Source: an uncultured virus (IMG/VR IMGVR_UViG_3300025015_000723)
Lineage: Duplodnaviria; Heunggongvirae; Uroviricota; Caudoviricetes
Reading direction: 5' to 3' (one strand)
Length of the DNA stretch: 20,000 nt
IMG/VR virus record: IMGVR_UViG_3300025015_000723
Coordinates: 55,125 to 75,124 of that record
In this document: positions 1 through 20,000 of the stretch, in pieces
How the letters are laid out: each line of letters opens with the position of its first letter
Numbering within the stretch: the stretch's first letter is position 1
The notes under the pieces: generated by a model
What the model was told of the DNA's origin: nothing
Database searches by the model: none
The model's input: only the letters and a program-made list of their open reading frames with translations
Made by a program: the position numbers and the translations under genes

Positions 1-106
1 TGGGAAACACAGACGTAATAATTCTAGTAGAATCATCCACATTATCAGTATTAACTACAATTTTATGTCCATAAGCAAAGTCAACACATCTAGCTTGATA
101 TATCAT
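1..106 (-). CDS. Hypothetical protein, N-terminal 35 aa only (runs off the window)
   Basis: Not in the ORF track. ATG at 106-104 overlaps the upstream TGA (ATGA). The frame is open to the edge: MIYQARCVDFAYGHKIVVNTDNVDDSTRIITSVFP. Confidence 0.7.
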   Translation of the reverse strand, partial: MIYQARCVDFAYGHKIVVNTDNVDDSTRIITSVFP

Positions 107-2619
107 CCCACACTCACTATGGTATCTAATTCAGATGTAATCATTTGTGCATCCGTGACAGTTAAACGAACAGTATATGTGCCAGAAAGAGCATAAAAAT
201 GCTCAAATGAAAATATGCCCCCTGATGAGACTGGATATAAAATTTGACCATCTCCCATGTCCACTGTTAATGTATGTGGAGCTAAGCCACGCGAAATAGA
301 AATCTCCATAATTAATTTACGAGGACAAAGTTGTTTATCTTCCGTTATATTACGTAATAAAATTATTGGCGCTCCGTATATTGAGATTGTAGAATTGACA
401 TCCAGTGTCTCCGAACACCCATTTGGATCCGTTAAATGTAAAGAAATGGTGTATTCGGCAGGAGTAGTGTAAGTGTGTGTTTGATCAGCTCCAGAATTCA
501 CTTCTCCATCACCAAAATCCCAAGAATATTCATATTGGTTTGGTAATCCAGTAGAAGTAACACATGGAGCTAAATCAATTGTATATCCCGGGAGTCTATC
601 ATTTCCTATTACATTAGTAACCATATAATTAATATAAGCATCCAATCGTGGATAAATAACAAAATCTATACTTCCACTAATGACAGTTCCCATGGCATCT
701 GTTACCACTATTGATACAGTGTGCTCTCCTTCTTCAAATACTTCGGCCAATAATTCACCAACATCATTAACAGAAACAGCATCCACGGCCCATACATATT
801 CATATGGTTCCAAGCCCCCAGCAACAATAGCTGTAAAGCTTTTAGATACATTTGGACAATTTACTGCATCAGATTCTAAATTAAGGGTAAGTGGTTCCAC
901 TGCAGTTACGTCAAATTCGGTGGGCCCCACGGCGCCGTGTGTGGTGCCAGGTAAAGGTAGTGTAACTTCATAACAGCCGTTTCCGTCTATAGAAATTCCA
1001 AACGGTTCTATAGTTAAATCTTCAACATATCTATATGCGACTGTTATACAAAATGGTTCCTGTGGAATAACGTGTGTGGGCACTGTTACGTTCACATATT
1101 CTGTTAACACTTCCACGTTACATGTTGCCTCTTGGGCTAAACCAGAAATTAAGTCTGTAGCAATAAAAGTTACAACATATACACCAGCAATAATATAAGT
1201 ATGAGTGGGTGAGGGGTCCGTGGAGGTTGTTTCGTCTCCAAAGTCCCATGAATAAGACATTGTATGATAGTTTAAATCTGGAACACCAGCATCTAATACT
1301 AAGTTTCCAGAGCTATCAAATACTGTTGGTCCAAAAGACACAGTTCTATTTTCATATATCGGCTGTAAATTACCACAGCGCATATTTACAATTGGTGAAA
1401 AATAAGTAATGCACGTATTAGTGGGATCTTCTCCGGCCAACACATCGGTATTACAACCCAATGTGGGTGAACCGGGACTGTAAAATTTAGTTTGGACATC
1501 TTCATCAATGGAATTTGCCGTGTCTTCATCATATCTTTTAGCCGCTTTTCGTGCTAATGTTAACGTTGAGGCGGCATAAGCAGAAATTTCCAACTCTGGA
1601 TCCGTGGAGGCCAGAGCATCTGTATATAAATTATTTAACGTTCGCGTAACGGTTGTTGGCTTAACATATTTACGAGCAGCTAATTCTATTAAAGCATCCG
1701 CTATTATTGCTTTGGTTAGGGCTTTATGAAATAATGAATTATCTGCGTCAATGACTGGGGCTTCCGCGATGTAACTTTCATATTTTAATATCCCCAAGGA
1801 ATCATATATAGCATAATCAAATGCGTCTAAACGAATAGCCGCAAAATATACTACATAATCATCAGGGGTGCCACTTACTTGAAAAAAAGACCCAGGAACA
1901 TCTACATATGCTCCACCATATAAATCAGTAACTTTAAAGGGCTGGATAGTTGGATTTCTCTCCACGGTAACAAAATATCCATCTGTAGAGACTTCTGATA
2001 TTATCCAATTATAAGCCTTCATAGTAGTTATAATAGAGTTTCTAGTAGCTACATCAATACCTGATGAAGTATTTAATGATAATTTATCTAAAACCAAATT
2101 TCCATCTACAAATGAACTATCTATCCAAGCTCCATCAATTGGAGATTCTGTTAAATATATATCTCTAATTACAATTTTATCTCCAGCTACAACACCTAAA
2201 GAAATAAAATCATAATTTGAAGTTTCCATCAACATTAATTCACTATCTATTTCATAAGCGTTTCCAACTACTGAGCCCTCATATTGATAACGCGTTGGTT
2301 CCGCGTTTCTAGATTGATTAATAATGGGAGGATCATCAATAAGATCTGCTAAATAATCCTCTTCCGTTGTTGACACATAATCGGCGTCACCCAATCGTCC
2401 CAAAGCATAAACACAAGAATTAATAATTGCTTGACCTATAGAGCCCGATACCAACACAAATTCTGAACTTGGACCATTAATACGACCCTTGAAAGCATCT
2501 ATAATAGCTGGCGTATTAGCTTGCACTCTAATAGCCTCTTGCACGCCGCCCAGGCGAATTGTGGCAACTGGATCGTTAATGCGACTTAATAGATCGGCTT
2601 CGTCAAATGCACAATACAT
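103..2619 (-). CDS. PKD (Ig-like) repeat protein with HEAT-like N-terminal helices; probable virion structural/adhesion protein (838 aa)
   Basis: PKD signatures SYSWDFGDETTSTDPSPTHTY (W458) and EYSWDFGDGEVNSGADQTHTYTTPAEYTISLHLTD (W700), plus degenerate copies YEYVWAV..GEHTVSIVVTDA (W610) and TVDMGDGQ..HFYALSGTYTVRLTVTDA. GGAGG lies 6 nt before the ATG; TAATG overlap with the upstream gene. Confidence 0.85.
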   Translation of the reverse strand: MYCAFDEADLLSRINDPVATIRLGGVQEAIRVQANTPAIIDAFKGRINGPSSEFVLVSGSIGQAIINSCVYALGRLGDADYVSTTEEDYLADLIDDPPIINQSRNAEPTRYQYEGSVVGNAYEIDSELMLMETSNYDFISLGVVAGDKIVIRDIYLTESPIDGAWIDSSFVDGNLVLDKLSLNTSSGIDVATRNSIITTMKAYNWIISEVSTDGYFVTVERNPTIQPFKVTDLYGGAYVDVPGSFFQVSGTPDDYVVYFAAIRLDAFDYAIYDSLGILKYESYIAEAPVIDADNSLFHKALTKAIIADALIELAARKYVKPTTVTRTLNNLYTDALASTDPELEISAYAASTLTLARKAAKRYDEDTANSIDEDVQTKFYSPGSPTLGCNTDVLAGEDPTNTCITYFSPIVNMRCGNLQPIYENRTVSFGPTVFDSSGNLVLDAGVPDLNYHTMSYSWDFGDETTSTDPSPTHTYIIAGVYVVTFIATDLISGLAQEATCNVEVLTEYVNVTVPTHVIPQEPFCITVAYRYVEDLTIEPFGISIDGNGCYEVTLPLPGTTHGAVGPTEFDVTAVEPLTLNLESDAVNCPNVSKSFTAIVAGGLEPYEYVWAVDAVSVNDVGELLAEVFEEGEHTVSIVVTDAMGTVISGSIDFVIYPRLDAYINYMVTNVIGNDRLPGYTIDLAPCVTSTGLPNQYEYSWDFGDGEVNSGADQTHTYTTPAEYTISLHLTDPNGCSETLDVNSTISIYGAPIILLRNITEDKQLCPRKLIMEISISRGLAPHTLTVDMGDGQILYPVSSGGIFSFEHFYALSGTYTVRLTVTDAQMITSELDTIVSVG

Positions 2620-3626: not shown

Positions 3627-6600
3627 TTACTTCTCCTCTGTGACCCCTAACTCTTTTCCACTATAGATCTTAACTCCATTAACTATATTTGTGAGATTGC
3701 CATTATATGTTTGTCTAATTTCTGGTGCATCATATACAAAATCAATTGCATCTGTAGCATGAATTTGCTCATGATATTTTTTAGTCGTAATGTCCACTTG
3801 AACAGAATCAGATTCCAATACCACAATTTTTACATTACCACTAACAGCTAAAATTAAGCCGTCTCCGGTATTAGAATCGCCAAAGTCATTTGTTTTAGTA
3901 TTACCAGGTTTAATTGATATATGTGCCCCACCAGCCATTTGGACATTAAGACTACGACCACCATCACCGCCTGGTCTATTGTCTTTTCCAAAATAAGCAC
4001 TCATAGAACCATCACAATGTATAATGGCACTACGATTCTTTTTATCTACACCAATTTGAGCTATCACCGACCCCGCCGTATCTAAAACAAGTGATTCTTT
4101 ATCTTTATTCATTCCCAACGTTAACCAGTTGGAGCCAAGTGTTTTTAAGTTTAAAGAGGTACCTTCATAATTAACTTGTTGTATTGCAGCTTGCCAGGTA
4201 GCATAATCATCTTTATGTGGGCGCGGTTCTTCGGCTCCCGCTGCCTGTCGAGTCGCCTGGTCAATGTGAGGGTGATACCCTACCTTCTCGTATTTCTTTC
4301 CACCGTTCGCTGGTCCTGTGCCATCTGGGTTAGCCTCAGACGAGTATTGATAGTCTGAATTTGAAGATGGATAACCCTGAAGCCCCTCATCTGTATTATG
4401 TTCTACATCTTCATTATCTTTACCTACAATTAATTTAATTCCACCCTTTAATAAACCATATAAAGATTTACCTTCATATTTGGTTTTTCCAACCGTTGTT
4501 TGAATGGCTCCATCACATTCTAATGATAAACTGCGATAATCGTCTATGTCTGCTCCCAACCAAGCTATAACCTGACCAGAAGTATCTAGACGTAAAGAAG
4601 TTCTATTTCCCTTACGATAAGTATAATCTAAATCGTCTCTGATGGTAAGTAACACATCGGCCTCAGTATTAATATTGATGCTACCGGCTTCTGTATCTCT
4701 TGCATCTGCCTTGAGAGTGAGTCTTTCATCATTATTTCTAGTTTCACTATCATATGAGCCCAAACCCTGCGAACGATGTCTATTATTAACAACATGGGCC
4801 ACTTCTTCAAATAGACCATGTTTAATTCTAGCTTTTCGAACCTCATCAGTAAGTTTTTTATTAATAACATTATTGGGTTCATGGTGATTTTTGGGATCAG
4901 CGGCCTCAAGAGATCTATCAGCTATTTTATTAGTTGACTCTGGCGTTTGTTTTCCCTTACCGTCGGGAAATGGTTGAGGTTCAGCTCCCTTAAAGGTGCC
5001 GTCTATTAAACGGGGATTGTAAGCAATTTTATCATGTCTCTCTTCATCAAATTCATCCCAAGTCTCAGTAGACTGAGAAGAATCAAAAAATCTATAACCA
5101 ACATTAATTTTACTATCTATATCAAAAGTCGTGTTTGGATTATAATCTCTAAAATAATGAATAAGTTTTCTACGTAACGATATACCATAATTAGCTTTAC
5201 CTATATGTAATTTCAATCCAGCCTTCATGTTTAAATCAAGGCTCAACTCCCTTTCAATGGACCTGCCTATAGTGCCAGTAATTGAACCATCTGTTTCAAA
5301 TACTAAAGATCGTCTATCATTAAATATTTTTTCTTGAGAAGATTTACCGCTTCGGGCAGCTACTTTAGTGTCTCCCCACGGAGCCTCAGCTTGGCATTCG
5401 CAAGGTTGTACATCGTACATTCTACCTAAACGTAAAATTGCTCCGCCACGTAAATCCGCTACAAGAGATTTCCAATCTGCATGATCGCGCCCGATTGACA
5501 GATCCATACGACCATCTAAACTAATTTTTGCAGATTGACCTATAGGACAATAAGCTTTAGTGTGACTATCTCCAGACGCATTATCAAATAAATCAGTTTT
5601 TTCTTGACTAGACGCTGTGCCAGTTTCAGCATTAGCTCCAACAGGAGAAAGCATAGCATAGTGTTTTACGCCTACATTATCTGTTAAAACTCGAAGTTCA
5701 CCACCAATCGTATTTAAAGAAGTTTGATGAACAGGATGATAAAGCTCACCACCATAACGTTTAATGCGTTGAAAAAGCTCTAAGTTTTTAGTTTTAGAGC
5801 GCACATGATTTTCTTCTGGACTGCTTTGTATTGAAACTTCAGCGGTCTCATCAAGGTCATATTTAGTCCATTCTGCAATTGAATGAGTTAATGAAGAGGC
5901 TGGAACATGTAATTTAAAAGTTCCATTTTTATCAACAGAAAAATCGAATATTGGCGGTAAAAATGCACCCTTGTTAGACTTGAGTTCATTTAGGTCATCT
6001 GGATTAATATTACTCCAAATATCACTGTCCAACGCCGTATCATAGGCCCAGTTTTTAGATATTTGACCCTTAGCTAAGCCCTCAAATCGTCTTGCACCAT
6101 CTTTACCATCACTATGATGCATTTCTCTTTTATAGTCGGTTCCAAGTGTGTTAATCCTAATATTAAGTACAGTGGCATTATTAAGTAAAGTTGGGTAAGC
6201 TTTAGAAAGCTTATCTTCTTGAGTGCCCGAAACGCTCACGCCCTCAAGCAACACAGTATTAATTTCAGCATGAGAGGCAGAGTCGTCTGCGTGAATTGGC
6301 ATATGATTAATATCCAATACTAAGCCATTAATATCTACAAGTGGGCCATATACTATCTCAGCCAAATCATTGTCTGCTAATTCCAAAGTGTTAGATCGCA
6401 AATACACTTTTCTATAAAAATTTCTATTCTCGTCTTCTGCTTTAATTTGATCATCTAATGGATCTAAATATGAAGCAGCAAATTCACGATATACGATTCT
6501 ACATTCAGCTAAACCTTCATTTTTAGATTTATTGATGGGCGCCTGATTCATGTCTTTACTATTTTTACCAGCAAACTCTACCGTTGTTCTAAGGGCCAAG

Positions 6601-7560: not shown

Positions 7561-10500
7561 TTATCCCTCTGTAAGTCCTGGAGATTGAGTAGCGGATCTT
7601 AATTCTGATACCAATTTTAATTCATGTTCAGCCCTATCATAATAGAGGGAGGCCCTTAATCTATCAACTATGCTCGGATCCCAAGTAGCCTTAATAATAT
7701 TCTCTTTATCGCAATTTAAACCGCATATTTCATTCCATTCTACAGAGTGAGTATTGCTAGACGGATCGCTCGTGGCATTTTTTATTTTATCTCTTTTGAA
7801 CTCAAGTAATTTAGTGAAATTAGATACATCATAACTCGTTAAAAATCTAGTATCATGAGATAGCAATGCTGCAGTTTGATCATATGGATTAGGAATCCAA
7901 ACTCCAGGATAGTGTCCATACCCCAAAGAAAGAGTAGTGGTAAATTGACCACTATAAGAAAAATTATGAGCCACTTTTGTTACATAAAATAACATATTAC
8001 GGCTTTCCACATATATAACTTCCCCTGTCTGATAAAACGGATTACCAATTATTTGTATTGAACCACTCAGCAGCGCAGAATACTGCCTGGTTAAATAAGC
8101 AGAAACGTATGGCATACCCTGGCTTTGAGCATTGGTTATAAATGCTTTTTGTACTTTTTCTTCTCTAAATCCATAATGATACCACAAATCAAAATCCACT
8201 CCAGCTGCAGTTAAATAAACTGGAATTCCAGGAGTATCAGTAAGTCCATCATATTTGCCCAGTACATTTAAGCGGCAAAATTTAGGTTCACTCTCATCGA
8301 AAGACCAACTTAATATATTTTTATCTTTAATATAATAATGTGACCTGGCGGACGAAGATGGAAGAATAGAATCCCCAAATATTTCCTTAGCCACACCTTC
8401 TTCTGAAATTGGATAATCCACCTCTACTAAATGTGCTAATAAATATTTATATTGATATGCCCTTACCCAAGATTTATCTATACCTGGTAAATATTTTAAT
8501 AATCTCTGGCTAGCTGCGTCAGTGCCGATTTGTCTTTCCCAATCTGCCCAACTACCAGCTTCCGCAAAATCTGGTGAGTTTTTCAAAAATGATAAAACAT
8601 ATGGTAGAATTTTTTCTTTAAACACACTCAATGGAACTCGATTATATTGTGGCTTTCTATACCAAAGATTACCCTGTGCGTCTGGAAAAAATTCCCAATC
8701 TAATTGCTCTACGACGTCTTCACATATTTGTTTAGGATTTAATCTATCCGTATCCCAGAGTTCCATGTTTTGATTGACTTGAAAATTAAACGCCCTTACA
8801 GCTATACTAGCCATATAAGTCATATCTATAATCACAAAATTCTGATCTATGTTCATAACTACATCGCTACGTTTATTTTGCAATACAGCTAACTGGGCAT
8901 CTCTATAATTGATACATTTTAATAACGCATCATCATCGGGGGCATCTACACTTGGATAACCACCAATTACACTATCAACTCTAAATTCAGTTATATCGTC
9001 CTTGTGAATATTACTTAACTCTAATATTTTAAGTTGATCTAATTCTTCGTCTATCTGGGCCCCGGTAATTTTCATATCAGCCCAAGCAAGCGAGGTGCTT
9101 CTTTTGCCCGTTGCTACAATATTTCTGTACTTTCCGACTTGACCATAGGTTGATAACACAATTTGTTCTGACAGGGTTTGACCTGGAAATATAGCACCAT
9201 TAATAAGTGCTCTAAATTTTTCATTTTCTTTAAGTGCTTCTGTTCTTGGGACCCCCTGAGGAGATGGAAGTGGAGTGGAATCTTCCGCGCTATCAAACAT
9301 AATTACTTGATGTATATATTGCTCATCTTTAAATGTTTTAGGGTCATATAGAGAAATATCTGCTGGTATCCATCCAAATGGTGTGAAATCTCCAAAAGCT
9401 TTATTTTGAGCATTGGCGGCAATTTGCAATAAATTAATCCATTTATCTGGAATTGGAGACTGTGCAATTTTTGTATCCAAATATCTTCTAAAAGAATGAT
9501 TAGAATCTGGAATAGAGGCTTTCATGGATAATTGTGGATTAAAGGCCAACCCAGTAGTAATCACAGATATAATGTTTGCAGAATCCAATGATTGAAGAGG
9601 TGCCTTCTCAAAGGCTAACCCAACTCGTTTAACGTAATCAGAGGTCATAGATTCCAAAGCAGTAGCTCTGTCGTATGCGCTTGTAAAAATAGCCATAGAG
9701 TTAGCATTACCCGCCACAAAATATTGACCATGTCTCCAACTAAAATGTCCCGTTGGAGTAACGGTCTCGTCAGTTTCTACTTTTACCTCTACGTCAATCG
9801 GGTCATACAAATAACCACCAAAGTTAGTAACTGATGGTGAATTAATAAATCTTGTCATTTCTAAAAATCTCATTACCGAAGAAGCATTAATATTTACAGT
9901 ATGAACTCCGTCATTATAGGCTTCTGATACCCGAGTGACAACGCCACTAAAAACTTGCATTCCCCCAGAAAGAGCAAACACCATAAACTGACTTAAATCT
10001 TTAGGGATAGTTGTAGGACTTAAACCAAAAGCCTTAAATCTGGTTTCAATATCTGCCATTTCTGTTTTATAATCATTAAGTTGATTTAATTGTTCCGTAT
10101 ATGCTGTAATTTGATTATCATATTCCTGTGTAGCTTGATTTGCCGCTAAATATTCAGACATTTGTTTATTTGAATTAGCTTCGGCGGAGACATCCGCTTC
10201 AACCTGACCAGCAATTGCGGGGTCAGAAGTTTGAACAGAAGTTGTTTCTTCTTTGGCTGTAGCGTCTTGAGAAGACATAAAATTATCACTAGAAGATTGA
10301 TTTAAACTAGATAAATAATCCTTCAACAGCCAAAGAGCCTCTGACACCACTGCACTAGTGTCCGCATCATAGGTCACACTATTGTTTTCCGCGCATTGAG
10401 CATTGCTTTGATTGTAATTAAATAAACCTAAAGTATCCCAAAAATTATCTTTATACCAACAGGATCCCCTATTGTTACCAACAAACCTTAAAGTATCTGT

Positions 10501-13434
10501 TGGAAGATAGAGGGGTTGTTGGTGACCATCATGTATTGGAGGTAAAACGATTTGCATAATAGAAATAATACCATTTAAAATACTTTTAATATTAATAACA
10601 CTATGTATTTTAGATTTTCCAGTTTGAGCTATAATAATTTGAGAACGCCAATTTAAATATGCAGTAGTGTATGTTGCTAACTCAGCAAGCTGTGAAGTAG
10701 ATAAGTTTGGACTATCAAAAGATACACCAACAAATGGTGATGTGCTGTTTTCTGCATAAACCATCCATCTTTGAGAGCTGCCCTTCGTTAAATTATATAA
10801 AAAATATCCACTATATTTAAACATAAGAGTGTCCCAATTGGCAGGAAATGGAATAAAAACATCCATATCAGAATTCATAGTTAATATAGTTTCGGGAGCT
10901 AAATTTCTATTACCAATGGTATAGTTTTTTAAAAAAGCATCCACATGCCCCATAGCAACATCGTATGTACATAATGATTTAAGTTGAGCAATAGATTCCG
11001 TTGAAAATAATTGTGCAGGATCTAAGTCTGTGGCAGAAGGATTCCACATAGGTGAACTTAAAGGTCTAAGACTTTGAATAACAGCAATACCTTGAGCCAC
11101 CAATTCTTTTATCAAAGACTGGCAATCTTGAACTTGTGCTTGGGTTTCAACTGGCTTTGGTTCTTCTGTTTTTTTAAGTTCGTCTGCTTTAGCTTGTTTA
11201 AGTGCATCTATGTCCTCTTGAAGCTTTTCTTGTACACCATCTTTAATTTTAGATTGAAGTAATTTATATCTATCGTATAATTCCTGAAGTAAATTGAAAT
11301 CCATTAAATTTTCTTTTTCTGGAGACATCCAAACATAAATTTCGTCCATTACCGTAAACACACTTCTTCCTACTAAAAATTTATACAAATTATCTATTTC
11401 GGATTTACGGGTAAAAGTAGCCCCACTTTTAAGTTTTGCTATAGGGCGCTGCTCAATTTGTCCACTATCAAAATTATCTAAAGCCTTTTGAGCATCGACA
11501 ACGGATATTTCAGCATTTGCCACTTCATCATTAATTATATCTAATGGATTTTTTTCTTTTTCTGGCGGTGATGGCTCGGTTGAGTCTCCTGGTGGAGCAG
11601 CATCTAAAACATCTAAGGCCATAGAATATACTAAAGACATAGCTGTGGCTAAAGCCATAAATCTATCTATTGCTTTAATAGCCGCGCCGCAAGTAGATGT
11701 ACAATCATTTGTACTCACCCCTAAATCTAAAAAATATGCTGAAGAACCGGCATCTTGCATTACCTTATTACCCCAAGAATGCCACATATCTTGCATTAAT
11801 GGAACCGAAGTTATTTGTTCACATTGATTAGTAGATAAAGCTGTGGAGAAAACGTCTGATTGTAAAGAATAATATAATGCCACCAAATTGGACCACGTGG
11901 GCTCAACATTATTTAATAAATAAGATAAACGATGATCACCAACAATTGTACTTACTCTAACTTTGGAAATATTAGATCTCCACTCCTGATGATTAACAAC
12001 CTGGTCGTCATAAATAGTACTAAGCTGCTGTCTCCACCAATTATCTAATTTATCTTTAGGCATAATAGCGTTTTCATCTTCTGAAATTAAAGCCTTGGAA
12101 ATAGCAATCATGTCTTCTTCTGTTAATGAAATATCTGTATTAAAAGGAATTGATTCATTAGGCCAAACTGATTGTATACCGCCCCCACGGCGGGAATCAT
12201 TAATTTTAACTTGAATTGATTTAACTAATTGAGTAAGCACTTGGTCACTATCTGGTGCGGCAGCTGTAACACTTCCAGATGGTTCTGTGGTTGGCGATAC
12301 AGCTGCGAGATCATGAACTGCTTTATCTCTTTTTTGATTAGCAATAGTCAACGCCGCTTGAGCATCTGTAAGTTTTTTTTCTAAATCAACTCTATCCTGA
12401 CGTGTTTTACTGTCTTGCCTATTTAAATCTTTAGTATAATCAAATAGATTATCTATATCTTTTTTACTCACATATAATAAATTATATGGATCCTCTAAGG
12501 TGATAGAACAACTACCAGCATCGCCAGTGTCTATGGAAAGATTTGTAGTTAATGAAGAAAAATTAGTTACTTCTAAAACCCCACCGACATCAATACCAGT
12601 AACTTGTTTACCATACCAATATGCACGATAATGATTATATTCTTTACTTTGTGGTGCTTCAGTACCATGGTTTTTAGCTATTTTAGTAAGTGTCCCCTCT
12701 GCATCTGTTTCAGACACACCATACATATATCTGTATTTAGTGAGAGCTTCAATAGTAGAAATATCAACTGTTTTTTGAATCATCAAGTCAGTTACAGCAG
12801 ATTGAAAGGCAGGGCTCCAAGCAGCAGCGGAGGTTAATAATCTAAAGTATTTTTTCCTAAAATATACAGATGCGGAGGGTGTTTGAACAACAACTAATGA
12901 TTTATTAGCATCTATTTCTGGAATACGTTGTAAATCCTTAGCTATAGTTCCTGGTTCTGAAAAATATGTACCATCTGCTTCTTCCCAGCTTTTATATCTT
13001 CCCTCCTGTACTCTCAAAATATCATCTCGCCACTCTCTGGTATATGTTAATTCAGAAGCTAACATTTGTTTACGATATGTTTGGGCCACGCCAGAAATCT
13101 CATCCCAAGAGATAGTTTCTGGACCACCTGAGGCGGACGACGGAGTGGTTAAGGGTGCTGCGTTTGAAGGTTGTGTTTTTTCTGGTGTAGCCGTGGGGGA
13201 TGGATTAACAGCTGGGGTTGAAGAGGTTCCAGTCGAAGAACCAGGAGACTCGTCCTTCCTCCACTCATTAGGCTCAACAAATGAGCCCACTTGATCTTTT
13301 TCTTGATAATAATAAGGAAATCTAGTGTTAGGGGCTTCGCCATTTATCAGAGAATATTCCCAATTAACCCGTAAAGATGGTTGCGTTTTAGGTGGTTTAT
13401 GTAACACAATAGAATAATTATTGGGATTAGACAT
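7561..13434 (-). CDS. Putative baseplate hub protein (T4 gp27 / P2 gpD / Mu gp44 / VgrG N-terminal-like) with very large insertions (1957 aa)
   Basis: Hub-like segments in the expected order: GSCSITLEDP, VFTVMDEIYVWM, QVFSGVVTRVSEAYNDGVHTVNINASSVMRFLE, KQICEDVVEQLDWEFFPDAQGNLWYRKP, YYIKDKNILSWSFDESE, and C-terminal GSIQIIGNPFYQTGEVIYVESRNMLFYVTKVAHNFSYSGQFTTTLSL. Lies between tube-initiator-like and spike-like genes. Confidence 0.75.
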   Translation of the reverse strand: MSNPNNYSIVLHKPPKTQPSLRVNWEYSLINGEAPNTRFPYYYQEKDQVGSFVEPNEWRKDESPGSSTGTSSTPAVNPSPTATPEKTQPSNAAPLTTPSSASGGPETISWDEISGVAQTYRKQMLASELTYTREWRDDILRVQEGRYKSWEEADGTYFSEPGTIAKDLQRIPEIDANKSLVVVQTPSASVYFRKKYFRLLTSAAAWSPAFQSAVTDLMIQKTVDISTIEALTKYRYMYGVSETDAEGTLTKIAKNHGTEAPQSKEYNHYRAYWYGKQVTGIDVGGVLEVTNFSSLTTNLSIDTGDAGSCSITLEDPYNLLYVSKKDIDNLFDYTKDLNRQDSKTRQDRVDLEKKLTDAQAALTIANQKRDKAVHDLAAVSPTTEPSGSVTAAAPDSDQVLTQLVKSIQVKINDSRRGGGIQSVWPNESIPFNTDISLTEEDMIAISKALISEDENAIMPKDKLDNWWRQQLSTIYDDQVVNHQEWRSNISKVRVSTIVGDHRLSYLLNNVEPTWSNLVALYYSLQSDVFSTALSTNQCEQITSVPLMQDMWHSWGNKVMQDAGSSAYFLDLGVSTNDCTSTCGAAIKAIDRFMALATAMSLVYSMALDVLDAAPPGDSTEPSPPEKEKNPLDIINDEVANAEISVVDAQKALDNFDSGQIEQRPIAKLKSGATFTRKSEIDNLYKFLVGRSVFTVMDEIYVWMSPEKENLMDFNLLQELYDRYKLLQSKIKDGVQEKLQEDIDALKQAKADELKKTEEPKPVETQAQVQDCQSLIKELVAQGIAVIQSLRPLSSPMWNPSATDLDPAQLFSTESIAQLKSLCTYDVAMGHVDAFLKNYTIGNRNLAPETILTMNSDMDVFIPFPANWDTLMFKYSGYFLYNLTKGSSQRWMVYAENSTSPFVGVSFDSPNLSTSQLAELATYTTAYLNWRSQIIIAQTGKSKIHSVINIKSILNGIISIMQIVLPPIHDGHQQPLYLPTDTLRFVGNNRGSCWYKDNFWDTLGLFNYNQSNAQCAENNSVTYDADTSAVVSEALWLLKDYLSSLNQSSSDNFMSSQDATAKEETTSVQTSDPAIAGQVEADVSAEANSNKQMSEYLAANQATQEYDNQITAYTEQLNQLNDYKTEMADIETRFKAFGLSPTTIPKDLSQFMVFALSGGMQVFSGVVTRVSEAYNDGVHTVNINASSVMRFLEMTRFINSPSVTNFGGYLYDPIDVEVKVETDETVTPTGHFSWRHGQYFVAGNANSMAIFTSAYDRATALESMTSDYVKRVGLAFEKAPLQSLDSANIISVITTGLAFNPQLSMKASIPDSNHSFRRYLDTKIAQSPIPDKWINLLQIAANAQNKAFGDFTPFGWIPADISLYDPKTFKDEQYIHQVIMFDSAEDSTPLPSPQGVPRTEALKENEKFRALINGAIFPGQTLSEQIVLSTYGQVGKYRNIVATGKRSTSLAWADMKITGAQIDEELDQLKILELSNIHKDDITEFRVDSVIGGYPSVDAPDDDALLKCINYRDAQLAVLQNKRSDVVMNIDQNFVIIDMTYMASIAVRAFNFQVNQNMELWDTDRLNPKQICEDVVEQLDWEFFPDAQGNLWYRKPQYNRVPLSVFKEKILPYVLSFLKNSPDFAEAGSWADWERQIGTDAASQRLLKYLPGIDKSWVRAYQYKYLLAHLVEVDYPISEEGVAKEIFGDSILPSSSARSHYYIKDKNILSWSFDESEPKFCRLNVLGKYDGLTDTPGIPVYLTAAGVDFDLWYHYGFREEKVQKAFITNAQSQGMPYVSAYLTRQYSALLSGSIQIIGNPFYQTGEVIYVESRNMLFYVTKVAHNFSYSGQFTTTLSLGYGHYPGVWIPNPYDQTAALLSHDTRFLTSYDVSNFTKLLEFKRDKIKNATSDPSSNTHSVEWNEICGLNCDKENIIKATWDPSIVDRLRASLYYDRAEHELKLVSELRSATQSPGLTEG

Positions 13435-13461
13435 CTATTCTTTCCTTTTTAAAATTAAATT

Positions 13462-14121
13462 TTAATCTTCACTAATTTGTGATTTAGAAGCAGATTGTTT
13501 ATCTGCTGCCTGCTGAGTTGAAACATTTTGAGCTGCTTTTTCGTTTTCCCTTGAAGAGGGAAAGGTAAGCTCACCTTGAACGGTCCTATGCCAAGGCATA
13601 TAATTGGCATCCCTACCCTTCGTCTTCCATACAGTAAAATTAATAGTATATGTATATTCTCCTGGGGAAGAGGCCGATTCAGTAATACTAAAATTTGTGA
13701 AAAAACCATAATATCTTTTATTGCCATACCATAGTGTCACCTGTGTGGCTCGTGACACTAAATCTGAACTATGATATGCTGTTTGAGAATTATCATCTTG
13801 TTTTTTGTCTGTGGTTAAAGATTTGTTATATCTTTTTTCTATTTGGCCTAAAACGGAAAGACCAGATTCACTTAATTGTTCAGATCGATAAATATCATAC
13901 AATACCTCAATCGCTTCTATTCCTGCGGAGCCGGTAGTGCCCGTAAGTTGTAAAGTATCAAGGTCGTCTCCCCAATATTGCACAACAAACCCGCCCTTTG
14001 TGCGAGTGGATGTAATTTTTTTAGTATGATTGAATACTACTTGTTGTGGATTAATATACATTTCAACCATAGTTCCATCATATAGTTCCCACACCATTAA
14101 GTGTCTTTTCCACTCAGCCAT
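13462..14121 (-). CDS. Putative tail tube initiator / tube-like baseplate protein (P2 gpU / T4 gp48-gp54-like) (219 aa)
   Basis: Pattern MYINPQQVVFNHTKKIT..RTKGGFVVQYWGDDLDTLQLTGTTG ... LWYGNKRYYGFFTNFSITESASSPGEYTYTINFTV resembles tube-fold proteins encoded right after tape-measure genes. GGGAG 6 nt before the ATG. Confidence 0.7.
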   Translation of the reverse strand: MAEWKRHLMVWELYDGTMVEMYINPQQVVFNHTKKITSTRTKGGFVVQYWGDDLDTLQLTGTTGSAGIEAIEVLYDIYRSEQLSESGLSVLGQIEKRYNKSLTTDKKQDDNSQTAYHSSDLVSRATQVTLWYGNKRYYGFFTNFSITESASSPGEYTYTINFTVWKTKGRDANYMPWHRTVQGELTFPSSRENEKAAQNVSTQQAADKQSASKSQISED

Positions 14122-14133
14122 AATTATCTCCCA

Positions 14134-16953
14134 TTAAAACCTAATAGTTGCCTGAAGACGATATTCTTCACCAGTGCGAGCACCCGATGTGTTTACTGCT
14201 GCAATCAATTTATCTATCTTAATCTCTTGAGGACCCGCGTCTACATCAAACCAATTATCCATTCCACCAACAGTTAGCTGAGAGGCAACCGCCGATGCCA
14301 TTGCTCCAGAACGTCTACCTAATCCTAAATATTGACCAACTGTAGCATTTTTGACACCACCAGCTGTTGGATTATAATCTAATGATGCCCCTTCTTTAAT
14401 CCATTTTTTAAAACCACCAAGACCCATAAAATGTACTAATTTTAAAGTTTCCGCTGTTACTGGTATGTTTATATTACGTAGCCCTTTAGCGTAATCCTGA
14501 ACCGCTAAACCCATCATTGTTTCTTGAATTTTAGCACCTTCAGGACCAAACATCATTTGGCGCATAGACTCTTTAGACGAAAAATCTTGAGTGGAAACAC
14601 CCATATTTGAAAATGCCGACGTATGTTTTTCATAAAGCTCTTTTGCTGTGCTTTGTACAAATTGATATTTTCCTGTGGCACTTGTTTGCTTATTAGCGGC
14701 ATAATATCCATCTGGTCCAGATTCTACTCCCGCTACTTCAGCTTTTAATTCATCTAATGCTGCACCAGAAAGGTTAGCTTCAGAAAGCATTTTTGCTTTA
14801 CTAAGAATATATTGTAAGCCACCCATGTTCTGAATACGTAACATATCTGAAGCCCCTATCGTAGCCTCTCCTTCTTGGTGTCTAAGAATTTGGCCCTGGC
14901 CGTGCATCGTAACTCCCTCGGTGTCTCCAGATGGAATACCTTGTTGTTTTATATCTTTTAAAGATGTAGAACTACCTTGAGTTGTTTCTTTAAAGGCGGC
15001 GGCGAGAGAGCCACCTGAACCACCCATAGGTGTCAAGGCTTCTCCCTGTAATCTAGCTCGTTTTTCATTAGCCTCTGCTTCAACGCTCCAGGGATTTAAT
15101 GCAGTGATTGCTTCGCGGGTGTATGCTTCGTCTTTAATTCCTGATGCCGACAAATCTTGAGCAACTACTATTCCCAGTGCCTTACCATATATTGACATTT
15201 TAGCTTCTGCTGAAGAAGCTGGGTCATTTAAAATTGCCTCTTCCGCAGCAGTTAGTTTCACACGTAATGCATATTTCTTAGAAATTTCTTTAAGTGTGTC
15301 GGCTATATATTCTGAACCATGTATGGGATCAGAAGAAGCCATAACATCTGCGCGCTTCATATTTTCCCATTGCTTACCAAGCGCTGTTGCAGCCACTACT
15401 TTATCTGTTTTATTTTCCTTTTGAAAGGTTTCCAATCTAGTATCTATATAGTGTTGTTTAGATCCAGAAGTAAGAGAAAATAATATATCGGATTTACGTT
15501 TAGTGGATTCTACATTATTACCAGCCATTCCAATCGCTTTCATATACATACCAGAAACATGGTCCCAAATTTGCTGTAATGTGGTTCTTTTCATACTTTC
15601 TATTGCTTCAGCTTCACTTAAACCATTTCCCATTGTTTGTTGCATTTTTTTATAATTAGCTTCTGTAACTTTATTAGTTTTTTTATAATCAATTAAAATT
15701 CCACGCATTAACATTGCTTGGTTTTTATCTTTAACTCCAAAGACACTAGACAGTAATTGATCAAACAACAAAGATTGATTGGCCGCTGTGTTAGCTTGTG
15801 AATGAGTTAAGCCCTTAGTAAATTCTGGGCCCCAAACAAAGAGGGGCGTTTTAGCAGAACCCTCAAGAGTGTTTATAATCATATCCATAACATCATTTGT
15901 GGAAACATTTTTTCCAGTTCTTAAATCCTTTCCAGCTCGAACTGCAGCACGCAACATCATACCGCCAACTAATGGATCTTGAACATCACCAATAATATTT
16001 TTAGCGAAACCACCAGACACCATAAGACCAGATATAACTGGAGATAAATTTCGCATTCCATCATCCATAATGCGCGTAAATTCATCAGTCAAAGCTTCTT
16101 GTCCCTTATTTCTTAAAATAGTAAAAACACTAGTATATAAAGATGTAATATTCGCAATGCGCCTAGTTCCATCTACAATACTACCTTCTGTCCCAGCCAC
16201 AATTGAAGCTAAATCTCCAAGGCCCTTAGTGGTAGACATTCCAACTATACGTAACATTTTAGTTGCATCTACCCAAGCTTCCATCATTCTATATGCTGCA
16301 ATTTTTGGATCATCGGAGGCGCCCATTCTACCAGCGGCGCCATATACCATCTTAGTGAGGGGAATAATATCATATTGAAAGGCGTTGCTAAATTTAAATA
16401 AAGTGCTTTGTAAATTATCAACAACATTACCGCTAGAATCAATAATTTGAGCATTAAGCATGGCATAAGAACCTGCCATCATTTTTACAGTATTAAGATA
16501 TTGATCTATTCTGTCTTGCTGAACATGTAGTGTTGATTTTAATTCACCAATATGAGAAAGTGTGGCATTAGCAAATCGACTAACTTCTTCCGTGGTTTGC
16601 CCAAAAGAGGCTCCTAATTGAATTGCACTAGTTTTGGTTTTAATCATAGCTTGTTCAAATGTTGTTACTGTGTCTATAAGATTAGCTCCAGATTCTAATA
16701 AATTGCCAGCTGTTTTAATTTTTAAATTTTCACTTTTCTTCATCATGGAAGTAAGATTTCTTATTACACCAGAATCTGATAAAGTTTTAATTTGATCATT
16801 TAAAATACTATTCATATCATCAGCAGTATTTTCCATTAACTTAAAGGACCGCGTTAATCGCTGAAGAACGCGTAAATATGACTCATATGCAACATTAGAA
16901 GATTCTATAGCTGCTTTAGTCGCACGTTGAATATTTTTATCTTGTTCGTTCAT
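14134..16953 (-). CDS. Tape-measure-like protein 2 with C-terminal lysozyme-like (lytic transglycosylase-type) domain (939 aa)
   Basis: Helical A/M/K/T-rich N-terminal ~640 aa. Catalytic-type motifs VAGVESG (E744), SATGKYQFVQST, LVHFMGLGG and TVGQY at ~14320-14760. ATGA overlap with the upstream gene. Confidence 0.8.
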   Translation of the reverse strand: MNEQDKNIQRATKAAIESSNVAYESYLRVLQRLTRSFKLMENTADDMNSILNDQIKTLSDSGVIRNLTSMMKKSENLKIKTAGNLLESGANLIDTVTTFEQAMIKTKTSAIQLGASFGQTTEEVSRFANATLSHIGELKSTLHVQQDRIDQYLNTVKMMAGSYAMLNAQIIDSSGNVVDNLQSTLFKFSNAFQYDIIPLTKMVYGAAGRMGASDDPKIAAYRMMEAWVDATKMLRIVGMSTTKGLGDLASIVAGTEGSIVDGTRRIANITSLYTSVFTILRNKGQEALTDEFTRIMDDGMRNLSPVISGLMVSGGFAKNIIGDVQDPLVGGMMLRAAVRAGKDLRTGKNVSTNDVMDMIINTLEGSAKTPLFVWGPEFTKGLTHSQANTAANQSLLFDQLLSSVFGVKDKNQAMLMRGILIDYKKTNKVTEANYKKMQQTMGNGLSEAEAIESMKRTTLQQIWDHVSGMYMKAIGMAGNNVESTKRKSDILFSLTSGSKQHYIDTRLETFQKENKTDKVVAATALGKQWENMKRADVMASSDPIHGSEYIADTLKEISKKYALRVKLTAAEEAILNDPASSAEAKMSIYGKALGIVVAQDLSASGIKDEAYTREAITALNPWSVEAEANEKRARLQGEALTPMGGSGGSLAAAFKETTQGSSTSLKDIKQQGIPSGDTEGVTMHGQGQILRHQEGEATIGASDMLRIQNMGGLQYILSKAKMLSEANLSGAALDELKAEVAGVESGPDGYYAANKQTSATGKYQFVQSTAKELYEKHTSAFSNMGVSTQDFSSKESMRQMMFGPEGAKIQETMMGLAVQDYAKGLRNINIPVTAETLKLVHFMGLGGFKKWIKEGASLDYNPTAGGVKNATVGQYLGLGRRSGAMASAVASQLTVGGMDNWFDVDAGPQEIKIDKLIAAVNTSGARTGEEYRLQATIRF

Positions 16954-19349
16954 TTGCTTCCTGGGGTTCCGCCAGTAGATTCATTTTCAAGAGGAGCATT
17001 TTTGGTTTGAATGAGAGCGGCATTAACAGTTGTAGTTTTATTAACGGGCCCCTTTGATTTGGGTTCATTTTGATTTGAATCCATCTGCGAAGAAGGGGCT
17101 TTAGTGTTGGTTGCCATTTCATTGCTAGCGATTAACTTGGACGATGAAGTGACGTCACTAGTTGGCAATGAAGAGGGTAACTTAGGCACAGTGGGCGAAA
17201 TACGAGGTGGAAGATTACTTACCGCTGCGCGTAATGATAAAACATTATTTTGAGGTGGTTCGATAGTAACTATTCTGCCACCAGCCGTGCGTGAACGATT
17301 AGAAGAGTCTAAACTCCTCACTTCGTAATGAATATGCGGGCCCGTAGAGCGGCCCGTACTTCCAACTAGACCAATTGGTTCACCAATGTTTACTGGACCG
17401 TTTTTAAACCCATCGGGAATACCAGATAAATGACCAAACACATGCTCCTCGTTACCAGTAATTACGCTAACCGTATTTCCCATATTTTTATATCCAGGAA
17501 AACCCTCTGGGTGATAGGTGGCTATCCCCGTCACAGGAGAAGGAAATACTGTTCCTTCTTTACCGGAAATATCAATTCCACTATGTAAATATCTACGACC
17601 TCTACTGTCTATTCTCGTTTCCCCATATTGACCTCTAATAGTGCCTGGAGGTGAGCCACCAGAACCAACCCGAGCTGCGCCTCTAGCGCCAGTTACAGTA
17701 GAAGAAACAGTTCCCTTCCCCATTAATTCCGCCAATGCATCTTCAATGGAACCCCTATCTGGCTCTATGGCTCCCACCGCAACCATTTCTCTGAGGGAAA
17801 CCCAAAGGCTGCGGGCTTCTGATAATGCATTTTGTTTTTCAACTGCAGATAGAGGCCTTTTAAGTTTCGCTTCTTTATCTGCTAAATGTTGTTTTTCAAA
17901 TGTCTCTGCAGTAGTTTTTAAATTTTTCTCTAATAAATCTTCAGCGTTTTTACCATATACCCAATGTAAAAACAGACCCTTAACATTAATCGCTATATTT
18001 TGTAAAGTGGTAAGTTGTTGCTGAGCTATTCCCTGTCCTTGATCAAAAACATTTTTTATTTTTTCTTCTGCACTTAATTTTTCTTCAGCCGTTAATTTAC
18101 CAGATAAAACTGAATTCACTAATTGAATAAGATTTTGGGCCTCTCCTTCGTTAACATGAAACATTTCTTGAATTTTAGATTGAACTACAAATGATGCGTT
18201 CCACCGTGGGTCGTTTTTAGCTACGCCCTGAGCTATTAACTCTGGGACAGACTCGAAACTACCAAAATACTTTTGCATACTAGTTTTGATTTTTAATAAA
18301 GCTGGGGCCATTTTACCTTGACCAGAAGCTTCTCTGATTTGAGCAAAGAAAGTTTGAACGTCGGCCATTGTGCCGCCACCGGATGCTCCCAATAACCACG
18401 CAGCGTTTCCAGAGCTAAGGCCAGTCAAGCCGGTTTGCACTTTTGCTAAAAAGTCTCCAGCTAATCCTTCTTGACCTCGTTGCTGTAGGCCCATATAAAA
18501 TTTTTCATAATTCAATCTTAAATCCATAGCTCTATTTTCAATATTAGTAATAGAAGCCCAATGACCGGACACAGATTTCATAATTTCTTCACGAAGATAT
18601 GGAACGGTTATTCCTAATCTATTAGCTGAATAAGAAAATCCTCTATAAATTTGAGCGGTTGTTGTGGCATTTTTTGCAAAATCTCCTGTTGCATGACCAG
18701 CTCGTAACGTTAGATCTTCAAAATCCTTTAGAACAGTAGAAAATTCCATACCCAAACCTTTGCTCATTGCAAACATATGGTCAACTATTGCTTTCTTTGG
18801 TCCCCAAGCTTGAATCATAGTATCCATATCTCTATAAGAAAAAGCTGTTTTACGTAATACTTCTTGATATTTATTAAATTCTTCAGTGTGAACTGATAAC
18901 GTTTGACTTAATCTTCCCAGCGTAGCCATTTGGCTCTTGGCATATCTTTCCACTTCCATGGATGATTGACCAAATGCAGCGCCAGTTATAACACTACTAC
19001 GTTTAAGATCCACAAAAGCACTATCTATTTTATTCATAGTTTCAGCTGCTATTAAAAGAGCTTTTACTGCTACGCCAATACGTTTATCTACTGACATAGC
19101 AATATCTTCAATAGTGCCTATTAACGGGATGTCGTTAACAGAATTAATATCACCAAATAATTTAGTAAAAGTACCGCCCAACTCTGAAACAGCTTTATTG
19201 GTTTTTTGAAAAACTTCGGTAACTTGTTCAAAAGATTGAGCAATATTTTCAGCTACCTGACCGGAAGCTTCTGCTAGTTTACGTTGGGCGGTAACTGCAG
19301 ATATTATATCTGCGCCAGTTTTACTATCTACAGTAACTTCATCTGCCAT
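16950..19349 (-). CDS. Tape-measure-like protein 1 with M23 metallo-endopeptidase domain (799 aa)
   Basis: Directly follows the frameshifted chaperone pair. Helical N-terminal ~550 aa. M23 zinc motifs HSGID (H589/D593) and STGPHIHYEV (H672/H674), plus FGHL and GEPIGLVGSTG, at ~17315-17640. S/T/P-rich C-terminal tail. Confidence 0.85.
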   Translation of the reverse strand: MADEVTVDSKTGADIISAVTAQRKLAEASGQVAENIAQSFEQVTEVFQKTNKAVSELGGTFTKLFGDINSVNDIPLIGTIEDIAMSVDKRIGVAVKALLIAAETMNKIDSAFVDLKRSSVITGAAFGQSSMEVERYAKSQMATLGRLSQTLSVHTEEFNKYQEVLRKTAFSYRDMDTMIQAWGPKKAIVDHMFAMSKGLGMEFSTVLKDFEDLTLRAGHATGDFAKNATTTAQIYRGFSYSANRLGITVPYLREEIMKSVSGHWASITNIENRAMDLRLNYEKFYMGLQQRGQEGLAGDFLAKVQTGLTGLSSGNAAWLLGASGGGTMADVQTFFAQIREASGQGKMAPALLKIKTSMQKYFGSFESVPELIAQGVAKNDPRWNASFVVQSKIQEMFHVNEGEAQNLIQLVNSVLSGKLTAEEKLSAEEKIKNVFDQGQGIAQQQLTTLQNIAINVKGLFLHWVYGKNAEDLLEKNLKTTAETFEKQHLADKEAKLKRPLSAVEKQNALSEARSLWVSLREMVAVGAIEPDRGSIEDALAELMGKGTVSSTVTGARGAARVGSGGSPPGTIRGQYGETRIDSRGRRYLHSGIDISGKEGTVFPSPVTGIATYHPEGFPGYKNMGNTVSVITGNEEHVFGHLSGIPDGFKNGPVNIGEPIGLVGSTGRSTGPHIHYEVRSLDSSNRSRTAGGRIVTIEPPQNNVLSLRAAVSNLPPRISPTVPKLPSSLPTSDVTSSSKLIASNEMATNTKAPSSQMDSNQNEPKSKGPVNKTTTVNAALIQTKNAPLENESTGGTPGSK

Positions 19350-19355
19350 GAGATT

Positions 19356-19361
19356 TCACCT
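19356..19361 (-). promoter_or_regulatory. Shine-Dalgarno site (AGGTGA) of the 799-aa gene
   Basis: AGGTGA-6 nt-ATG. The same 6-nt spacing is seen for GGGAG (14128-14132), GAGGAG (3633-3638) and GGAGG (2626-2630). Confidence 0.65.
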
Positions 19362-19391
19362 AGAGAAGAATCTAAAACATTAATAAATATT

Positions 19392-19430
19392 AATACCAAA
19401 AGGGCTCCCTTATTTGTGGGAGCCCTTTTT
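19392..19430 (-). terminator. Intrinsic-terminator-like hairpin overlapping the chaperone-extension stop codon
   Basis: Perfect 12-bp inverted repeat AAAAGGGCTCCC (19398-19409) / GGGAGCCCTTTT (19418-19429) with an 8-nt loop containing the TAA. On the minus strand the GC stem is followed by TTTTGGTATT; on the plus strand by TTTTT. Confidence 0.7.
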
Positions 19431-19835
19431 AATAATTCGTATGTCATCTAGGTCCTTAGGAGATAAGCCCCGAGGATTTTTTGAAATAACTGGGGGGCTT
19501 GCTCCATCTGGTCCGGCGGACCTACCAAAAAGGCCCTGCACCGTATCATCAAAACTATTATCTTGGGCTGAACTATGTTCTCCTATCTTATTTTCTCTGG
19601 AATCTTGAGTGCTTTTAACTCTCTCAGCTCCCTCATTGCTAGACAAAGCAGCTAAATATTCTGTTATATTGCGATCATATTCCAGTGTATCTTCGTCATC
19701 TGCGTTAACGTTGGCAGCATACCAAAAAAATTGCAAACGGGTCATGTTTTTAATAACTGGATCGTCGATTGTTTTACCGAGAGATTTACAAATCTTCCAA
19801 AGGAGTCGCTGCCCCGACTCCTTTAGGAGTTTTTT
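19410..19835 (-). CDS. Tail assembly chaperone C-terminal extension (lambda gpGT-like), probably reached by -1 frameshift rather than from ATG 19745
   Basis: The 111-aa ORF frame stays open 31 codons upstream of its ATG (RKKLLKESGQRLLWKICKSLGKTIDDPVIKN-MTRLQFFWY) and is closed by TGA TGA at 19839-19844, just before the slippery site. No SD in front of ATG 19745. Confidence 0.85.
   Translation of the reverse strand, partial: KKLLKESGQRLLWKICKSLGKTIDDPVIKNMTRLQFFWYAANVNADDEDTLEYDRNITEYLAALSSNEGAERVKSTQDSRENKIGEHSSAQDNSFDDTVQGLFGRSAGPDGASPPVISKNPRGLSPKDLDDIRIIKKGSHK
19797..19835 (-). promoter_or_regulatory. Programmed -1 ribosomal frameshift signal: A_AAA_AAC plus 3' stem-loop
   Basis: GTA AAA AAC TCC TAA (heptamer 19835-19829, correctly phased X XXY YYZ), followed by AAAGGAGTCG-GGGCAG-CGACTCCTTT (19824-19799, 10 perfect bp, extendable by U-G and C-G pairs). 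Confidence 0.85.
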
Positions 19836-20000
19836 ACGTCATCAAATTTTACATTTTCAACGACTTTCGCGGCCTCATCCTCAAGGCTGGAATACAAAGA
19901 AAAAAGCTTATCTAAAACTGGTGTAGAGAGCTTATTAATAACCTCTAAACGCTGATCATGAACAGCAAGATTCGTAACGGTGCCCGCATAATAATATTCC
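19823..20000 (-). CDS. Tail assembly chaperone (lambda gpG-like), C-terminal 58 aa only; 5' end outside the window
   Basis: Not in the ORF track. Open frame from 19999: EYYYAGTVTNLAVHDQRLEVINKLSTPVLDKLFSLYSSLEDEAAKVVENVKFDDVKNS*. Helical, ends on the slippery K-N codons, and lies upstream of the tape-measure-like genes. Confidence 0.8.
   Translation of the reverse strand, partial: EYYYAGTVTNLAVHDQRLEVINKLSTPVLDKLFSLYSSLEDEAAKVVENVKFDDVKNS

Follow-up and report, generated by a model that had tools for sequence, protein, structure and literature searches.

Adjacent paralogous tape-measure-like genes with different wall-hydrolase domains in an uncultured jumbo phage

The DNA analyzed here is a 20,000-nucleotide (nt) stretch of the IMG/VR record IMGVR_UViG_3300025015_000723 (positions 55,125 to 75,124), assigned to an uncultured virus of the Caudoviricetes. 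This whole stretch is called the window, and coordinates count from its first letter unless a locus is named. The window is the final 20 kb of a 75,124-bp contig, with all genes on the minus strand, and its DNA is 100% identical to a stretch of a 332,730-bp viral contig; it therefore belongs to an uncultured jumbo phage. At its center are two adjacent genes encoding tape-measure-like proteins of 799 amino acids (aa), designated A, and 939 aa, designated B. Their features are as follows.

16950..19349 (-): gene A, 799 aa, with a tape-measure-like N-terminal module (N module), an M23 peptidase domain and a proline/serine/threonine-rich tail (open reading frame (ORF) and domain searches)
17715..19226 (-): shared N module of A, about residues 42-545 (hhalign 42-467; BLASTP 103-558)
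17313..17588 (-): M23 peptidase domain of A, residues 588-679 (Pfam PF01551, E 2.6e-12; PDB M23 chains to E 1.5e-10)
16950..16953 (-): ATGA, in which the A stop codon overlaps the B start codon; the ATG has AGGA 8-11 nt ahead of it
14134..16953 (-): gene B, 939 aa, with a tape-measure-like N module, a linker motif, a lytic transglycosylase-like domain and a conserved, strand-like C-terminal tail
15235..16869 (-): shared N module of B, about residues 29-573 (hhalign 29-479; BLASTP 94-573)
14818..14922 (-): degenerate copy in B of the G..N.TEGE.R.LHEGEM.IP..GG motif, residues 678-712 (alignment A5)
14368..14751 (-): candidate phiKZ gp144-like lytic transglycosylase domain of B, residues 735-862 (hhalign to gp144; E744-S745)

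Paralogy, family and C-terminal domains of A and B

A preliminary description of the locus, made from the letters alone, had read A and B as the products of an old tandem duplication with unrelated hydrolase domains at their C-terminal ends, and had suggested a profile-profile comparison of the N-terminal regions. BLASTP aligned residues 103-558 of A with 94-573 of B (E 5e-14, 22% identity, 492 columns). The match was stronger with profiles: hhalign gave a probability of 97.7% (E 2e-12) for 3- against 2-sequence profiles, and 100% (E 1.2e-41, 429 columns) for 10- against 10-sequence profiles. The ungapped block of residues 107-179 versus 98-170, counted by hand in the preliminary description, was recounted at exactly 22 identities in 73 positions, as compared with a mean of 15.7 and a maximum of 20 for the best 73-residue window in 100 shuffles. 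The colinear motif pairs listed there were all located, at positions 123/114, 144/135, 288/280, 447/457 and 528/541 of A and B. These results confirm the two predicted proteins as paralogs over about 450-490 N-terminal residues, with unrelated C-terminal parts: M23 in A and a candidate gp144-like transglycosylase in B, two different domains as had been described. The ATGA overlap was likewise found at 16953-16950.

When the shared module was searched exhaustively with HMMER against 1.84e9 representative proteins, 16 matched at E<=0.001, and 14 of these were retained and assigned by BLAST to seven A-type and seven B-type sequences. P0020 (915 aa) was rejected as a repeat-driven false match, with eight short stretches and many spurious Pfam matches, and P0019, of 393 aa, was considered a fragment. 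For a maximum-likelihood tree, the first 620 residues of 21 rows (19 of them different) were used, excluding P0019, P0020 and those locus copies that duplicated P0009 and P0013 exactly. One branch with 100/100 support separated the 11 A rows from the 10 B rows, and the known pairs were congruent in the tree (P0009 with P0011, the latter as L007_B, in locus L007; P0007, as L008_A, with P0013 in L008). P0004 and P0005, both reported from a 172,952-bp contig, are probably from the same contig.

Genomic context was available for four loci, L004 from this phage and L005, L007 and L008. In all four, A is followed by B, with gaps of -4, 2, 9 and 6 nt; the ATGA overlap occurs in this phage only, the other pairs being spaced by 2-9 nt. 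Each of five DNA sets, namely the 75-kb contig and the four loci, contains exactly two module-bearing ORFs, and a third paralog sought in these sets was found in none. Across the 7 + 7 lineages represented by the retained proteins, the module is kept in both copies. The clade split thus supports the view that the duplication giving rise to A and B is old, as had been proposed. The check proposed there, of whether homologous genomes keep both genes and exchange the C-terminal domains, had a partly positive outcome: both genes are present in 4/4 loci and the enzyme of A is exchanged, as described below, but that of B is kept.

Related loci for P0018, P0016 and P0012 were sought in viral contigs and none was found. 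A metagenome scan with alignment A6 returned this phage, a 4.1-kb fragment (L010) too short for both genes and a copy of L007. A tblastn search with B against 50,697 phage records gave only a match to the C-terminal domain, in Leptolyngbya phage Lbo-JY46. The family had no match in the prokaryote genome contigs scanned, which hence offered no clue to the host.

We also compared the lengths of the shared module. The span between two conserved anchors (A124 and L449 of A) is 325-333 residues in A-type and 338-349 residues in B-type proteins, at identities of about 22-28%. Module length is near-constant in both classes and the two lengths are about 6% apart, which fits both a ruler and chains lying side by side; the comparison covers two independent clades only.

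M23 enzymes cut the peptides of peptidoglycan, and lytic transglycosylases cut its glycan strands. The M23 endopeptidase that the preliminary description had placed in the 799-aa protein is well supported, with a score of 47.2 bits against the PF01551 cut-off of 28.7 and every motif residue in place: the zinc ligands H589, D593, H672 and H674 (HxxxD + HxH) are intact, and they are invariant in 3/3 close homologs. Among A-type relatives, M23 is confined to the clade of the window. P0007 carries VanY (E 1.1e-5) instead, P0010 has a weak NlpC/P60 match below the cut-off, and P0008, P0009, P0012 and P0016 have no recognised enzyme domain.

The B-type profile (A5) matched phiKZ gp144 by hhalign at a moderate 83.9% (E 7.8e-6, 117 columns), and the match takes in the catalytic E-S and SATGxxQF motifs. 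E744 and S745 of B are nearly invariant in alignment A5. Against a PDB profile, the B domain matched over the catalytic motif only (E 0.18). The domain of B itself had no Pfam, PHROG or NCBIfam match; phrog_4067, annotated 'transglycosylase', matches the orthologous region of P0011 and P0015. Thus, the lysozyme-like glycosidase of the preliminary description gains a profile match and its catalytic residues and lacks a curated family, and gp144-like lytic transglycosylase is a moderately supported and better label for this predicted domain. It is present in 7/8 other B sequences compared, the exception being P0018.

P0018 (841 aa, B-type), without the transglycosylase domain, has a long branch in the tree. 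A stretch of this protein, residues 787-822, is similar to residues 619-654 of the A-type P0007, just upstream of the VanY match there (47% over 36 aa).

Beyond the enzyme domain, A-type and B-type proteins end in strand-like C-terminal tails that are conserved within each class and differ between the two. Ahead of its enzyme, B carries the degenerate linker motif listed above, in which G680, G687, E696, G711 and G712 hardly vary across alignment A5. P0011, P0013, P0015 and P0017 have clear copies, as does the A-type P0007; overall, the motif is shared by most B proteins and by a few A proteins, none of the latter from the clade of the window, and it follows the enzyme or the module. The G..N.TEGE motif is reminiscent of the GE..PE..IP motif of many tape measures. 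A longer form, G..N.TEGE.R.LHEGEM.IP.NQ.D.IR..GG, was observed at residues 705-745 of P0011, 723-765 and 852-895 of P0013 and 839-880 of P0007.

Tail-module setting and the G/GT chaperone pair

The genes flanking A and B in the window are given here with the frameshift elements.

19823..20000 (-): 3′ end of gene G, which encodes a tail assembly chaperone of 170 aa when complete and is truncated here by the contig end
19829..19835 (-): A AAA AAC, the slippery heptamer at which a -1 shift from the G to the T frame is predicted, correctly phased in 4/4 loci
19797..19826 (-): hairpin just 3′ of the slippery site (minimum free energy -21.4 kcal/mol, z -3.75)
19410..19838 (-): frame encoding the T part of GT (within it, the 111-aa ORF spans 19410-19745)
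13462..14121 (-): tube-initiator-like baseplate protein, 219 aa (PF23980, E 1.9e-8, 34.7 bits against a cut-off of 27)
7561..13434 (-): 1957-aa protein, probable central hub or spike component (position and a weak phrog_1015 match)

The full G gene lies at L004:6619-7131 and the G/GT region at L004:6619-7544. The G protein matches the tail assembly chaperone family phrog_2792 (E 9.5e-4) and the gp181 chaperone of Bacillus phage G (BLASTP E 2e-6). Relative to the 170-aa gene, the 111-aa ORF is in the -1 frame, which is open from 16-19 nt ahead of the G stop codon in 4/4 loci, and the apparent 77-nt spacer between the two encodes a conserved peptide in the T frame, again in 4/4 loci. The 8-bp core of the hairpin is conserved in the four loci, with two pairs changed on both sides. 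By these features, the 170-aa and 111-aa ORFs are the G/GT chaperone pair, predicted to be made by programmed -1 frameshift.

The gene order of this contractile-tail module is the same in 4/4 loci: sheath, tube, tube, G/GT, A, B, tube initiator and then hub. In L004, the ten kb upstream of A and B encode a 1334-aa sheath protein weakly matched by PF17482, a GIY-YIG homing endonuclease, a pair of 239-aa tube-like paralogs with 47% identity (E 2e-52), the 170-aa chaperone-like protein and the 111-aa ORF, followed by A and B. On the other side, the 219-aa protein also matches the PDB chain 9euf_M, a 'putative baseplate component' (E 0.001). The 1957-aa protein had a weak match to phrog_1015, 'tail protein with lysin activity' (E 2.9e-5, residues 1789-1836), and Pfam and PDB searches with it gave no match; from its position and the phrog_1015 match it is presumably the hub or spike, though unusually large. 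The wedge genes come later, downstream of the 1957-aa gene. A promoter and terminator scan of 13300-20000 yielded nothing above chance and no terminator between A and B.

Some further features of the surroundings were observed. The tube paralogs (L004:5040-5759 and 5826-6545) are in tandem in 4/4 loci and fall into two clades. Between phages with tape measures of about 28% identity, the second copy has an identity of 81-92% and the first of only 45-79%. Only in this phage does a GIY-YIG/NUMOD3 homing endonuclease gene (L004:4533-5030) separate the sheath gene from the tube genes; no homing endonuclease is present at that place in L007 and L008, and apparently none in L005, in which the contig end truncates the preceding ORF. 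Among the baseplate genes, an 838-aa protein with three PKD domains (PF18911, E 1.3e-35; window 103-2619, minus strand) is likely a surface-binding or decoration protein. Elsewhere on the contig are genes for GroEL, ribonucleotide reductase, helicases, glycosyltransferases and baseplate wedge proteins of the gp25-like and gp6-like types. The genes for the GroEL-like chaperonin (phrog_5725, E 9e-135) and ribonucleotide reductase are at G000:C1:2763-4424 and 10199-13168 (L001); GroEL-like genes have been reported in MarsHill-like and AR9 jumbo phages (bioRxiv 10.1101/2020.12.14.422802).

Candidate roles of A and B in the tail

As described in PMC5009743, G and GT bind the tape measure, the frameshift is widely conserved in long-tailed phages, and the tape measure directly follows G/GT. 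The strongest argument for a tape-measure character of A and B is therefore that they are the next genes after G/GT. The N modules of both proteins are proline-poor (7 prolines in residues 1-500 of A), and their hydrophobic moment at 100 degrees points to helix-type periodicity (z 5.1 and 5.8). Language-model neighbours fall in the tape-measure clusters PF10145, PF06791 and PF20155 at 0.88-0.91, which we take as a lead only. The tape-measure character assumed in the preliminary description is thus supported by gene position, with G/GT upstream and a tube-initiator-like gene downstream, and, weakly, by the proline-poor N module with its helix-type periodicity, and it comes without a family match.

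Several observations weigh against this assignment. In the N module, 0/17 members had a match to a Pfam tape-measure family even at E<=5, the NCBIfam tape-measure models gave no match, and the PHROG tape-measure matches fall on the M23 part only, none of them on the N module. The hhalign probability of the A and B profiles against the tape measure gp183 of phage G and the tape-measure pair of Staphylococcus phage DC4, both described below, was <4%. A strong hydrophobic segment, as in many tape measures, was sought in A and B and found in neither. The hydrophobic moment is a weak measure, as the M23 control reached z 3.0, and the Atlas models have a predicted local distance difference test (pLDDT) score of 0.48. 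The constant length of the module fits a folded globular domain, too. Moreover, the genomic context covers four lineages only, and the phage is known here from its DNA alone, as genes.

The explanation we favour, at a probability of roughly 0.6, is that A and B are ancient tandem duplicates of the tape-measure gene of a contractile-tailed jumbo phage, with products that would both lie in the tube lumen and be expelled on contraction. The two genes would be transcribed together and translated in tight succession; translational coupling may balance the two subunits, as the preliminary description had proposed, and the upstream G/GT chaperones probably act on both products. Both proteins would probably be built into the tube lumen of every tail through N modules of about 550 residues each, proline-poor, colinear and near-constant in length in both lineages, and the C-terminal tail proper to each would probably dock at the tube-initiator/hub end. 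Contraction would expel both: A would cut peptide cross-links by M23 (in relatives by VanY or possibly NlpC/P60), and B would cut glycan strands by its gp144-like lytic transglycosylase. In phage G, the same job would be done by one protein carrying both enzymes.

Because the A and B modules are equal in length and colinear, a parallel bundle in which A and B lie mixed side by side would be the favoured arrangement. Tape measures have been reported as trimers or hexamers (PMC10996793). More tentatively, and with considerable doubt, the tail core could be an obligate A/B hetero-oligomer, for example with three of each, in line with the heteromeric tape measure or ejection channel suggested in the preliminary description; near-equal colinear subunits that predate the divergence of the group, C-terminal docking by each protein and one enzyme on each would all suit such a core. 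If this is true, and with tube paralogs that are equally old, the inner tail would be made of paired paralogs rather than single proteins.

Alternatively, only one of A and B may be the length ruler, the other being an ejected, tape-measure-derived 'tail lysin' that would ride in the lumen or hub in a copy number of its own and have no part in setting the length. The published pair of the MarsHill and DC4 phages is annotated in this way, as a tape measure with a tail lysin or lysozyme (bioRxiv 10.1101/2020.12.14.422802; PMC10638138), and the same division of labour would agree with the different conserved C-terminal tails of A and B and with an A enzyme that is swapped freely among relatives while the B enzyme is kept. 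However, both N modules are near-constant in length and colinear at 22-28% identity, which mere cargo would not need, and neither copy has lost the module in 7 + 7 lineages. We regard a single ruler with an ejected partner as unlikely.

A and B might also stand end to end in the tube, their sum setting the tail length, in which case a duplication without fusion would have doubled the ruler. According to PMC8570332, a tape measure spans about 1.56 Å per residue (4500 Å for 2893 aa in phage G and 925 Å for 590 aa in T4). On this scale one protein would correspond to a tail of about 125-146 nm and the sum to about 270 nm. A tail of about 270 nm is the more usual for a phage of about 333 kb, which speaks for the serial arrangement, as does the single very long protein that fills the same slot in phage G. 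Against it, A and B carry an enzyme domain apiece and end in separate conserved C-terminal tails, and the C-terminal end of the tape measure docks at the hub end in known cases. To our knowledge, no ruler of two serial chains has been described, a literature search having found none, and we consider two rulers in series quite improbable.

That neither protein is a tape measure, both being baseplate-hub or internal ejection proteins placed after the chaperone genes, would accommodate the N module without a family match and the much larger 1957-aa protein two genes downstream, but it is very improbable, as the tape measure directly follows G/GT in long-tailed phages (PMC5009743), including the homologous module of phage G, the 1957-aa gene lies beyond the tube-initiator gene on the baseplate side, and no other tape-measure candidate is present between the tube and baseplate genes in the four loci.

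Comparison with known systems

Among the 50,697 phage records, phage G was the only one to match the tube protein. The wedge protein matched eight records (six phages), the best being phage G (E 4e-23) and the others short and weaker, and the sheath had no match among the records. By these similarities, the nearest cultured tail module is that of Bacillus phage G (NC_023719). As described in PMC8570332, this module comprises the sheath gp178, the tube candidates gp179 and gp180, the G-T chaperones gp181 and gp182 with a frameshift and a single 2893-aa tape measure, gp183, in a 450-nm tail, with the baseplate next; the roles of the gp179/gp180 pair are called unclear there. We found that the pair of tube paralogs in the present phage has homologs in gp179 and gp180 (E as low as 1e-19), that gp184, which follows gp183, belongs to PF23980 like the 219-aa protein, and that the C-terminal end of gp183 carries a glucosaminidase (PF01832, residues 2470-2582) and an M23 domain (2621-2716). 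The two phages thus share the order of sheath, two tubes, G/GT, tape-measure slot, PF23980 protein and gp6-like wedge, and both have a glycosidase and M23 at the C-terminal end of the tape-measure slot. In contrast, both enzymes are on one chain in phage G and on two paralogous chains, one each, in the present phage; the glycosidase is a glucosaminidase there and a gp144-like transglycosylase here; and the gp183 ruler has no detectable sequence similarity to A or B.

Long-tailed phages normally have one tape-measure gene after the chaperones, and the preliminary description had taken this as its premise. Published exceptions among Staphylococcus jumbo phages show that the premise does not hold throughout: 'Two potential tape measure proteins', of which one carries a tail-lysin annotation, are reported for MarsHill-like phages (bioRxiv 10.1101/2020.12.14.422802), and in phage DC4 a 1990-aa tape measure with M23 adjoins a 1962-aa tail lysozyme (PMC10638138). 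Our comparison showed this DC4 pair to be paralogous (E 2e-39 and 1e-9), UFVDC4_00260 with M23 and UFVDC4_00259 with Phage_lysozyme2 and NlpC/P60. As with A and B, these are adjacent paralogous tape-measure-like genes in which the peptidase copy comes first and the glycosidase copy second. They differ in being more than twice as long as A and B and in sharing a C-terminal module (46% identity), whereas A and B share the N module only. The DC4 pair has no detectable homology to A and B (hhalign 0.4% and 0.2%), and the two pairs are therefore of independent origin. Literature searched for two or paralogous tape measures gave nothing else relevant, as the passages found in PMC3271669, PMC3447690 and PMC7302621 use such phrases in other senses.

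Other systems resemble the present one in single respects. In the diffocin described in PMC10996793, a contractile tail-like machine also holds a helical ruler in the tube lumen, but a single protein forms that ruler, as a homotrimer, and the enzymes are on the hub protein, whose tandem hydrolases are described as 'a pair of scissors'. phiKZ gp144 (PDB 3bkh, 9xps), to whose catalytic-domain profile residues 735-862 of B match moderately (83.9%), is a free 260-aa endolysin with a peptidoglycan-binding domain, whereas the B domain is fused behind a tape-measure-like module. The mycobacteriophage TM4 tape measure reportedly has one embedded muralytic domain, and phiIPLA35 is said to belong among the tape measures of this kind. 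These proteins likewise place a wall hydrolase on a ruler in the tail lumen for delivery at infection, but through a single gene and a single type of chain.

The published accounts treat tape measures as homo-oligomers, with 3-6 copies in PMC8570332 and a homotrimer in diffocin in PMC10996793. A ruler pair that was kept for a long time in a family unrelated to the Staphylococcus case would indicate that twin tape measures have arisen more than once and are under stable selection. The contrast with phage G, in which the two activities lie on one chain rather than two, raises the questions of what drove the enzymes apart and whether a ruler may be heteromeric. The exchange of peptidases (M23, VanY and possibly NlpC/P60) on a fixed scaffold is of interest for the engineering of tail-delivered lysins, with the practical limit that the family has no cultured member. 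The arrangement itself is already known in kind from MarsHill and DC4, and the locus is a clear new example of independent origin, not a new principle. To these cases it adds great age and stable retention, a one-chain counterpart in the homologous module of phage G, and peptidase exchange.

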